Assembly (NCBI GenBank): GCA_951406725.2
Contig: OX597830.1
Span: 4,650,001 to 4,714,000 of the forward strand
Direction: 5' to 3'
Source: Octopus vulgaris
Lineage: Eukaryota
DNA length: 64,000 bases
Every line of letters begins with the position of its first letter. Within the stretch, counting starts at the first letter, position 1. Made by a program: the position numbers and the translations under genes. Below are positions 7,157 through 8,184 of the stretch, one piece after another. The notes beneath the pieces were generated by a model, which searched no databases, was not told the origin of the DNA, and saw only the letters and a program-made list of their open reading frames with translations.

Positions 7157-7309
7157 ATGGACATGGGCTAGAATAAGAACAATAATAAACGAATAAAGAA
7201 GGAATATATAGCGCGTGTATTTATTTGGCAAAAAAAAACAAACAAAAGAAATTACATTATTTACATTATTTATATTTGACGAATATTTGTCCTCATCTTG
7301 TTTGTTGTT

Positions 7310-7350
7310 AACACAACATTTCGGCTGATATACTCTCCAGCCTTCATCAG
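7310..7350 (-). ncRNA. Minimal type I hammerhead ribozyme motif (stem I 5' strand deleted)
   Basis: Minus strand CTGATGA-A-GGCTG gagagtatat CAGCC-GAAA-TG-TT-GTGTT: both core boxes are intact and stem II has 5 bp. Confidence 0.6.
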
Positions 7351-7574
7351 GGGAAATTTTGAACCTGGGTTCTCATTCCTAAGGTATTTTTCAATATTAT
7401 TATTATTATTGTTATTGCTCAGGTCACTGCTTGGAATCGAACTTCGTAGCCTGTTCTCTTAACCACTATACCATATGCCCACAGGCAGTTATGGAGTGAA
7501 TTTTGGGGCTTATAAATCTTATATTTTTCTAATCCTTTCTATGAGCCCCAAAATTCACTCCATAATTACCCACA

Positions 7575-7646
7575 GGCATATGGTGTAGCGGTTAAGAGTG
7601 CAAGATACTAACCCCAAGATTCTGAGTTCGATTCCAAGCAGTGACC
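7575..7646 (+). promoter_or_regulatory. tRNA-derived Pol III head (A box / B box)
   Basis: A-box-like TGGTGTAGCGG (7581-7591) and B-box GAGTTCGATTCC (7624-7635) at tRNA spacing. An internally deleted mirror copy lies on the minus strand at about 7423-7480. Confidence 0.65.
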
Positions 7647-7745
7647 TGAACAGCAACAACAACAACTCCAACAACAACAATAATAATAATAATAACATCG
7701 AAAAATACCTTAGGTATGAGAACCCAGGTTCGAAATTTCCCCCAA

Positions 7746-7791
7746 GACACTTGAAGAAGGCTGGAGGGTACATCAGCCAAAACGTTGTGTT
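7746..7791 (+). ncRNA. Minimal type I hammerhead ribozyme motif (two core substitutions)
   Basis: GACAC-TTGAAGA-A-GGCTG gagggtacat CAGCC-AAAA-CG-TT-GTGTT: stem I gacac/gtgtt, stem II ggctg/cagcc, palindromic ACGT stem III. C3>T and G12>A relative to the consensus. Confidence 0.6.
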
Positions 7792-8184
7792 AACAACAAA
7801 CAAGACGAGGACAAATATCTATCAAATGTAAATGATGTAAATAATTCCTCCTCTCTTAAATATCGAACTGAATTAAAAAGAAAGATTACCATCCCGAAAT
7901 ACAACAATAAATATATTCCTATGCACATAATATATGTATATATTTTGGGTTTTAGTTGTTTTAGTCATTGGACAGCAGCCATGCAAAAGCATCACCTTGA
8001 AGGATTTGGTCAAAGAAATTGACCCCAGTTCTTATATTTAAGCTTGCTACTTATTCCATTAGTCTCTTTTGCCAATCTGCTGAGTTACAAGGTTGTAAAT
8101 ATATCAACAATATTCGTCAAGCAGTGTGCAGTGGGGAATGAACACACACACACACACACACACACAATTATATGCACATATATA

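Follow-up and report, generated by a model that had tools for sequence, protein, structure and literature searches.

A Penelope-type element of octopus with a tRNA-derived cassette, a candidate Pol III promoter, in its pseudo-LTR

The closest described systems to the locus analyzed here are the Penelope-like elements (PLEs) of the Penelope/Poseidon type. Poseidon of Anolis carolinensis (PAc) has a single ORF combining reverse transcriptase (RT) with a C-terminal GIY-YIG endonuclease, has pseudo-LTRs, and starts its ORF at the ribozyme; according to the available parts of that study, both target strands are cut and extended, reverse transcription begins at two internal sites bracketing the tail, the minimal RNA requires ORF sequence past these internal start sites, and cleavage by the ribozyme is dispensable for insertion in vitro (PMC11167929). 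Penelope/Poseidon PLEs start their ORF at or just before the hammerhead, carry a 30-40 bp tail and leave inverted truncated copies (PMC11167929, PMC8557442), the published Penelope pattern being an inverted truncated copy together with a one-sided tail (PMC8557442), and dual minimal hammerheads situated 100-700 bp apart on opposite strands have been reported from Schistosoma (PMC4209133). The octopus element described below is alike in its ORF, its pseudo-LTRs, the position of its ORF start, its tail and its inverted truncated copies. Unlike in PAc and the Poseidon PLEs, its stop-to-start interval is a tRNA-derived A/B-box cassette followed by (AAT)n, and most copies end there; such a cassette is unmentioned in the available text of PMC11167929 and PMC8557442.

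Three other groups of elements share individual features with the octopus element. In Penelope of Drosophila virilis, too, the pseudo-LTR contains an internal promoter, which precedes the ORF start and lies in the stop-to-start interval, but in the accessible description this promoter is LINE-like and TATA-less, is accompanied by a downstream promoter element and an intron, and is not tRNA-derived (PMC2377424). Small-RNA-derived Pol III boxes inside a terminal repeat are found in the TRIMp3 elements Cassandra, Helenus and Ajax; as described in the available portions of the source, these are short non-autonomous LTR elements whose autonomous partners are expected to use Pol II, whereas the present element is autonomous and not an LTR element (PMC10886601). 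Finally, schistosome Sm-alpha and the metazoan retrozymes also possess a hammerhead, and Sm-alpha a Pol III promoter as well, but the parts of these reports at hand describe short non-coding tandem repeats with canonical type I hammerheads that cleave efficiently or as dimers, in contrast to the octopus ribozyme, which is a coding ribozyme of the minimal type and belongs to an autonomous element with inverted pairs (PMC6765202, PMC7229834).

The window analyzed, a 64-kb stretch of the Octopus vulgaris genome, contains only two copies of the unit, which lie back to back. A sequence-only reading of the window had described two inverted arms, 7256-7514 and 7540-7845, around a 25-nt loop. Inverted alignment pairs 7256-7349 with 7752-7845 (88%), 7350-7417 with 7675-7742 (91%), and 7443-7514 with 7540-7611 (81%), and 25 nt do separate the last two segments, so that the inverted arms are real; however, the supposed loop consists of the last codons of an ORF and forms part of the left arm, and the right arm reaches 7870, through a tail at 7846-7870 that had been missed and that is present on this arm only. 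The left arm (7256-7539, minus strand) is a 5'-truncated Penelope pseudo-LTR copy without a tail, ending at 7256; the last codons of the RT/GIY-YIG ORF, placed by alignment to locus L024, occupy 7510-7539, with the stop at 7510-7512. The right arm (7540-7870, plus strand), also 5'-truncated, begins at the ORF stop (7542-7544) and finishes with the tail. Thus, the stop codon is present in both arms, and neither begins at the tRNA-derived head.

The A/B-box heads claimed for both arms are indeed there: the right arm has a tRNA-Arg-like head at 7574-7650, a candidate internal Pol III promoter, with the A box at 7581-7591 and the B box at 7624-7635, and the left arm mirrors it at 7419-7480 (minus strand; A box 7463-7473, B box 7433-7444) with two small deletions. 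Downstream on the right arm follow an (AAC/AAT)n spacer (7649-7695), the length of which differs among copies, and the ORF start codon (7716-7718, mirrored on the minus strand at 7374-7376). The right-arm minimal hammerhead (7746-7791), located within the first ORF codons, has a predicted cut after 7786 and carries the lesions C3>U and G12>A, as had been noticed; the A at core position 7, also taken for a lesion, is a subfamily variant. The left-arm hammerhead (7310-7350, minus strand; predicted cut between 7315 and 7314) was correctly read as lacking the 5' strand of stem I with an intact core, although an additional C>T in the stem III palindrome had escaped notice. Flanking the pair is a possible 8-bp target-site duplication (7876-7883, plus strand, with 7244-7251), which is A-rich and weak at this locus.

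Judged by its sequence, the unit is the pseudo-LTR of an autonomous Penelope/Poseidon-type element encoding RT and GIY-YIG. One inverted arm, at locus L024, extends past the head on its upstream side and enters an endonuclease-like frame, the last codons of which align with the loop of the window. Among the 30 ORF-end loci retrieved with this frame, the head follows the ORF stop in 26, and the hammerhead segment lies downstream on the same strand in 26, which bears out, across the family, the linkage of head and hammerhead proposed from the two arms. In a separate search with the 5' part of the ORF, 17 of 30 loci showed the hammerhead segment leading directly into the beginning of the ORF, and 5 of 15 longer stretches display a repeat-ORF-repeat structure. 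The order of parts is ORF stop, tRNA-Arg-like head, (AAT)n, ATG, hammerhead inside the first codons, and tail, with the ATG located 30 nt upstream of the ribozyme and the frame crossing ribozyme and tail into the N-terminal domain; a similar N-terminal peptide is present in one homolog (P0002). The element is approximately 2.6 kb long.

RVT_1 scored above the Pfam cut-off in two of the three open stretches scanned, in keeping with the earlier proposal that a Penelope RT mobilizes the unit, the unit being a repeat of the element that carries this ORF. For the third stretch, which is C-terminal, look-alikes at 0.96-0.97 bear GIY-YIG, with the family found on 12-27% of their members; no direct Pfam match to GIY-YIG was obtained in the element's stretches, and the DKG motif and the endonuclease Cys/His residues are visible in the translations. 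By inspection, the RT-EN linker has no extra zinc finger, unlike in Neptune and Nematis, and the homologs listed are 602-1283 aa long, many of them 780-860 aa; the assignment to the Penelope/Poseidon clade is based on the architecture and this list. The family is large, with at least 11,057 end copies in the genome according to exact matches of a 23-mer from the 3' part, 6,097 exact matches of a head 18-mer and 2,763 of a tail 33-mer (reversed controls, 0 in each case). In 217 arms, the divergence from the column majority amounts to 3.6% outside CpG sites. Near-identical sequence occurs in sequencing runs coded as five organisms, none of these runs being recorded as RNA. The same genome harbors a second Penelope-like family (L311-L316) with a linker zinc finger of the Neptune type, the copies of which are 97-99% identical, with open frames of up to ~800 aa and inverted partners, and without a tRNA head.

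The palindrome is almost certainly a single inverted end insertion of Penelope, in which two 5'-truncated copies of the pseudo-LTR lie back to back. An inverted partner was detected at 19 of 29 loci in the first search and for 53 of 90 tail-anchored arms, and in 65 of 76 pairs one arm, and one only, has the tail. Flank words of at least 8 nt are shared in 41 of the 65 pairs with a one-sided tail, compared with 81 of 2000 mismatched pairs. Both arms have the same variant at a subfamily site in 49 of 54 pairs, the pair in the window being one of the five that are discordant. We had considered that the two arms of a locus might resemble each other much more than they resemble arms from elsewhere, but the difference is only slight (5.9% vs 6.4%), with 12 rare variants in common in 6469 columns within loci compared with 191 in 253,134; so small a difference is in line with most of the changes postdating insertion. 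A palindromic master spreading as a unit was rejected as well, given that junctions and partner lengths differ between loci. At the 5' junctions of L002, L085 and L260, the inverted partner is reduced to a few to a few dozen tail bases, and apparent solo copies may be extreme inverted pairs.

By analogy, the insertion mechanism of Anolis Poseidon probably applies here too. The RT/endonuclease would cut both target strands and prime two cDNAs at a pair of internal start sites, one on either side of the tail; joining of these cDNAs at their distal ends would yield the back-to-back insertion. Were transcription to begin ~7 nt before the tRNA-like +1, a cDNA with its priming site at the first repeat/ORF junction would run off the RNA 5' end and give rise to the very common SINE-sized copies, with the run-off ends often folding back on a small leader palindrome. 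Binding by the Anolis protein depends on ORF sequence farther downstream. The short copies lack this sequence and would therefore be dead ends, not source genes. The arms in the window would derive from a downstream junction of a longer RNA, and the RNA behind both of them did reach upstream of the head. The family provides a handle on how Penelope inverted pairs are formed, since its thousands of copies are sharply delimited at the 5' side, have the tail on one side and show target duplications.

The sequence-only reading had combined the differently damaged arms into a complete minimal hammerhead of the Penelope type, and both points withstood comparison with the family: the most frequent base at each position specifies an intact core together with a stem I of 5 bp, a stem II of 5-6 bp and the ACGT palindrome, with core and stems as in the minimal PLE motif, and the core is kept in 110 of 209 arms spanning the ribozyme. 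Relative to the minimal PLE hammerheads, which have a short helix I, a long helix II, an extra base before G10.1-C11.1, and a palindromic 15.2-16.2 without loop 3, we see no difference; the available part of that work does not mention a tRNA head (PMC4209133). Core position 7 is a T/A subfamily site, with A in 22% of arms and linked to two other sites, and the change replaces Asp with Glu in the ORF. Among 12 family copies, no stem pair varies on both sides; relatives carry other stem sequences, but these were retrieved with a pairing filter, and the same architecture was present in 9 of 79 metagenome relatives under a strict filter. The Rfam scan that had been suggested as a check gave no hammerhead family match for either the window region or the best-preserved hammerhead.

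Because the inserted copies hold both sides of the cut site, their templates were uncut or re-ligated, and self-cleavage need not be invoked to explain the copies; in the mechanism outlined above, the hammerhead would have stayed uncut in these templates. In the first sample, 6 of 99 arms had 5' ends at positions 91-97, beside the search anchor and hence suspect, and in the replicate none of 85 ended at positions 91-94, and 5' ends at the cut site were therefore rejected as a feature of the family. The palindrome and the ribozyme are ordinary for Penelope, and the point of interest is the tRNA cassette.

The head can be aligned without gaps to the tRNA-Arg(TCG) and tRNA-Arg(TCT) of the genome at 37 and 33 of 55 positions, respectively, and to Thr(TGT) at 33 of 55, with 23-31 for the other four tRNAs tested, which suggests a preference for, rather than proves, an Arg origin. 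The A box matches the Pol III consensus given in the accessible part of PMC8969392, the B box has one change, and the spacing is 33 nt. The ungapped Arg register and the match of the boxes uphold the earlier description of the head as tRNA-derived with Pol III boxes. The boxes are intact while the cloverleaf has been lost: Rfam returned no tRNA match on the window region or the best-preserved copy, and ARAGORN found no tRNA gene in the window, lowered thresholds giving only wrong-strand or wrap-around matches. Octopus tRNA-derived SINEs, named OK, OR1 and OR2, were reportedly described by Ohshima and Okada in 1994. OR1 and OR2 are presumably of Arg tRNA origin. The tRNA-derived heads of these SINEs, among which OR2 is classified as a CORE SINE (PMC4758252), resemble that of the present family, but the comparison is by description only, as far as the available text of the sources allows (PMC3531059, PMC4758252), and identity with OR1 is possible. 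Hammerheads are not mentioned in the available part of PMC13282606. In the open-access literature, we found no description of a Penelope pseudo-LTR with a promoter of tRNA origin or for Pol III, nor of the present family, the short form of which may already be catalogued as a repeat.

The stop-to-start interval, where the Drosophila element has its internal promoter, consists mostly of the tRNA cassette here, and we favor, by a modest measure, the view that the cassette is the working internal Pol III promoter of the element. One line of evidence is the 5' ends of copies. Our first sample comprised 99 arms from the first 100 pattern matches on one contig (C1): 49 include the head, 20 are already truncated within the 3' segment, and the other 30 have their 5' end in or beyond the microsatellite. 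These 30, like 23 more in the replicate, were left out of the counts. Among the 46 arms reaching +20, 37 stop by -20, where 2.8 would be expected from the background rate, paired arms not being independent; in the replicate of 85 new tail-anchored arms, the corresponding figures are 29 of 31, or 29 of 32 if an internally deleted read-through seen by eye is counted. On a finer scale, the 5' end falls between -8 and +3 for 77 of 96 intact heads and between -9 and -19 for none, and 19 read through.

Several explanations of this pile-up can be compared. A transcription start near -7 is the best reading, and a stop of RT at a local hairpin accounts for it less well. The latter would be the case if the element and its insertion were the same, with the tRNA segment a passive SINE or tRNA relic and with RT stalling and snapping back at the leader hairpin on Pol II transcripts, a combination that we regard as possible but not probable. 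There is a local hairpin of -12 kcal/mol at about -21 to +18, with a CACG loop, which is among the most stable 2-4% of windows in three of four copies. Stable YNMG tetraloops stop RT. Many ends fall at +2 to +5, the 3' base of the inner stem, and genome-wide, 351 exact fold-back junctions at the leader palindrome stand against 409 exact read-through sites. The promoter of the Drosophila element, according to the portion of the report available, is LINE-like, TATA-less and internal (PMC2377424). However, equally stable hairpins exist elsewhere, including at about -105 and -375, yet just 1 of 7 and 1 of 4 arms have an end close to these; the hammerhead stem itself shows no pile-up, and the overall stability of the region is unremarkable (z 0.17). 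Moreover, many ends have 2-8 leader bases and no fold-back, the boxes have stayed intact while the cloverleaf was lost, and no free-standing donor SINE with another body was seen among 30 head matches.

The retained leader bases also bear on the proposal that a host enzyme such as RNase P cuts a longer Pol II transcript at the tRNA-like boundary, the downstream fragment serving as the template. Ends do cluster around the tRNA-like +1, but 59 of the 77 keep leader bases upstream of it, 48 of these two or more, and no cloverleaf is retained, making this the least credible of the explanations considered. Counted against a promoter in the cassette are the read-through of the head in 19 of 96 cases and in both arms of the window. 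Among full-length copies reaching the 5' end of the upstream head, one of three stops there (L260, with the ORF start downstream) and two read through; one further copy with the ORF start downstream stops inside the head.

It is a more tentative suggestion, one that we would not bet on, that Pol III makes the full-length, multimeric template RNA as well, the promoter having been replaced by a tRNA gene fragment and terminators having been purged over the 2.6-kb sense strand. The column majority over this strand contains no T4 run, which also speaks for the promoter reading as such, but the statistics are weak (P 0.074, Markov; P 0.066, codon shuffle), and runs of G4 are missing as well. Seven natural long copies have 0-3 T4 runs each, compared with ~5 expected from base composition; the second, younger Penelope-like family of the same genome, without a tRNA head, has five shared T4 runs, and at least one is present in 36 of 40 ORF stretches of relatives. 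The remaining 4 of the 40 have no T4, and the three of these with downstream sequence contain no box pair; L325 and L380, relative ORFs without T4 and without a tRNA head but with T-rich repeats, are a counter-example to reading the absence of T4 as a sign of Pol III. The translation of an uncapped Pol III RNA also counts as a difficulty for the promoter interpretation.

A distant Poseidon-type relative with ~38% amino acid identity, L324, has a box pair between the stop and the hammerhead (L324:2828-3030), followed by a short AAT run, and is possibly a second case of a tRNA-derived pseudo-LTR. It is one of 37 relatives tested, 4 of 3000 shuffles being as good (~0.05 after correction), its head has no detectable relation to the present one, and an Rfam scan of the interval yielded no tRNA or hammerhead match. 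The assembly shows the 2.8-kb L324 unit as an exact tandem; the unit has no T5, and its two T4 runs lie near the start of the ORF. Another candidate box-pair relative, L363, passed 60 shuffles but failed 3000 (50/3000) and was discarded.

RNA-seq data, namely raw reads from three runs of one study and one organism, cover the unit equally in both directions, 69-80% of the reads running on into unrelated flanks, and coverage drops ~hundredfold past the tail. In these three runs, from a library type ill-suited to RNA ends, we saw no common read starts or ends, and among the joints listed there was neither a circle junction, for which the library type is likewise ill-suited, nor a skip corresponding to a spliced intron in the repeat. 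The pattern fits passenger transcription of many copies and neither supports nor refutes a promoter in the cassette.

If the cassette does drive the coding element through Pol III, the thousands of SINE-like by-products would represent a direct route from a Penelope pseudo-LTR to a tRNA-plus-hammerhead SINE. The sequence-only reading had gone further and proposed a separate non-autonomous SINE or retrozyme, self-propagating and self-cleaving, that borrows the Penelope RT. In appearance, the copies are compatible with this: most head-bearing ones start at the head, some are solo or tandem, the boxes are preserved, and no T4 run interrupts the unit. Yet every part belongs to the repeat and first codons of the autonomous element, the head following the ORF stop in the loci counted above and the ribozyme lying in the first codons; among eight sites covered by both classes, no variant is specific to the short copies, subfamily variants being common to short and ORF-linked ones; and 29 of the 30 head matches continue into the element's own spacer, 22 of 30 with a hammerhead segment within 1.1 kb. 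In addition, palindrome junctions and partner lengths vary locus by locus, no long tandem arrays were seen, only occasional partial tandems, the replicate has no excess of ends at the cut site, and the window arms start inside the ORF end. The separate SINE is therefore quite improbable, and the unit is better regarded as the end of the autonomous element. For annotation, this means that short copies would be listed as SINEs even though they are Penelope ends. Should the coding element itself be driven by Pol III, the division under which Pol III promoters are known from short non-autonomous elements and Pol II is expected for autonomous ones would be broken.

Other repeats have become associated with the unit. 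Another tRNA-headed SINE-like repeat adjoins or lies inside several copies (flanks of L016, L027 and L028). At L007 and L019, other LINE-like 3' ends are situated within the (AAT)n spacer, splitting the head from the hammerhead, and these we take to resemble the ends of the microsatellite-targeting Dong/R4 elements.
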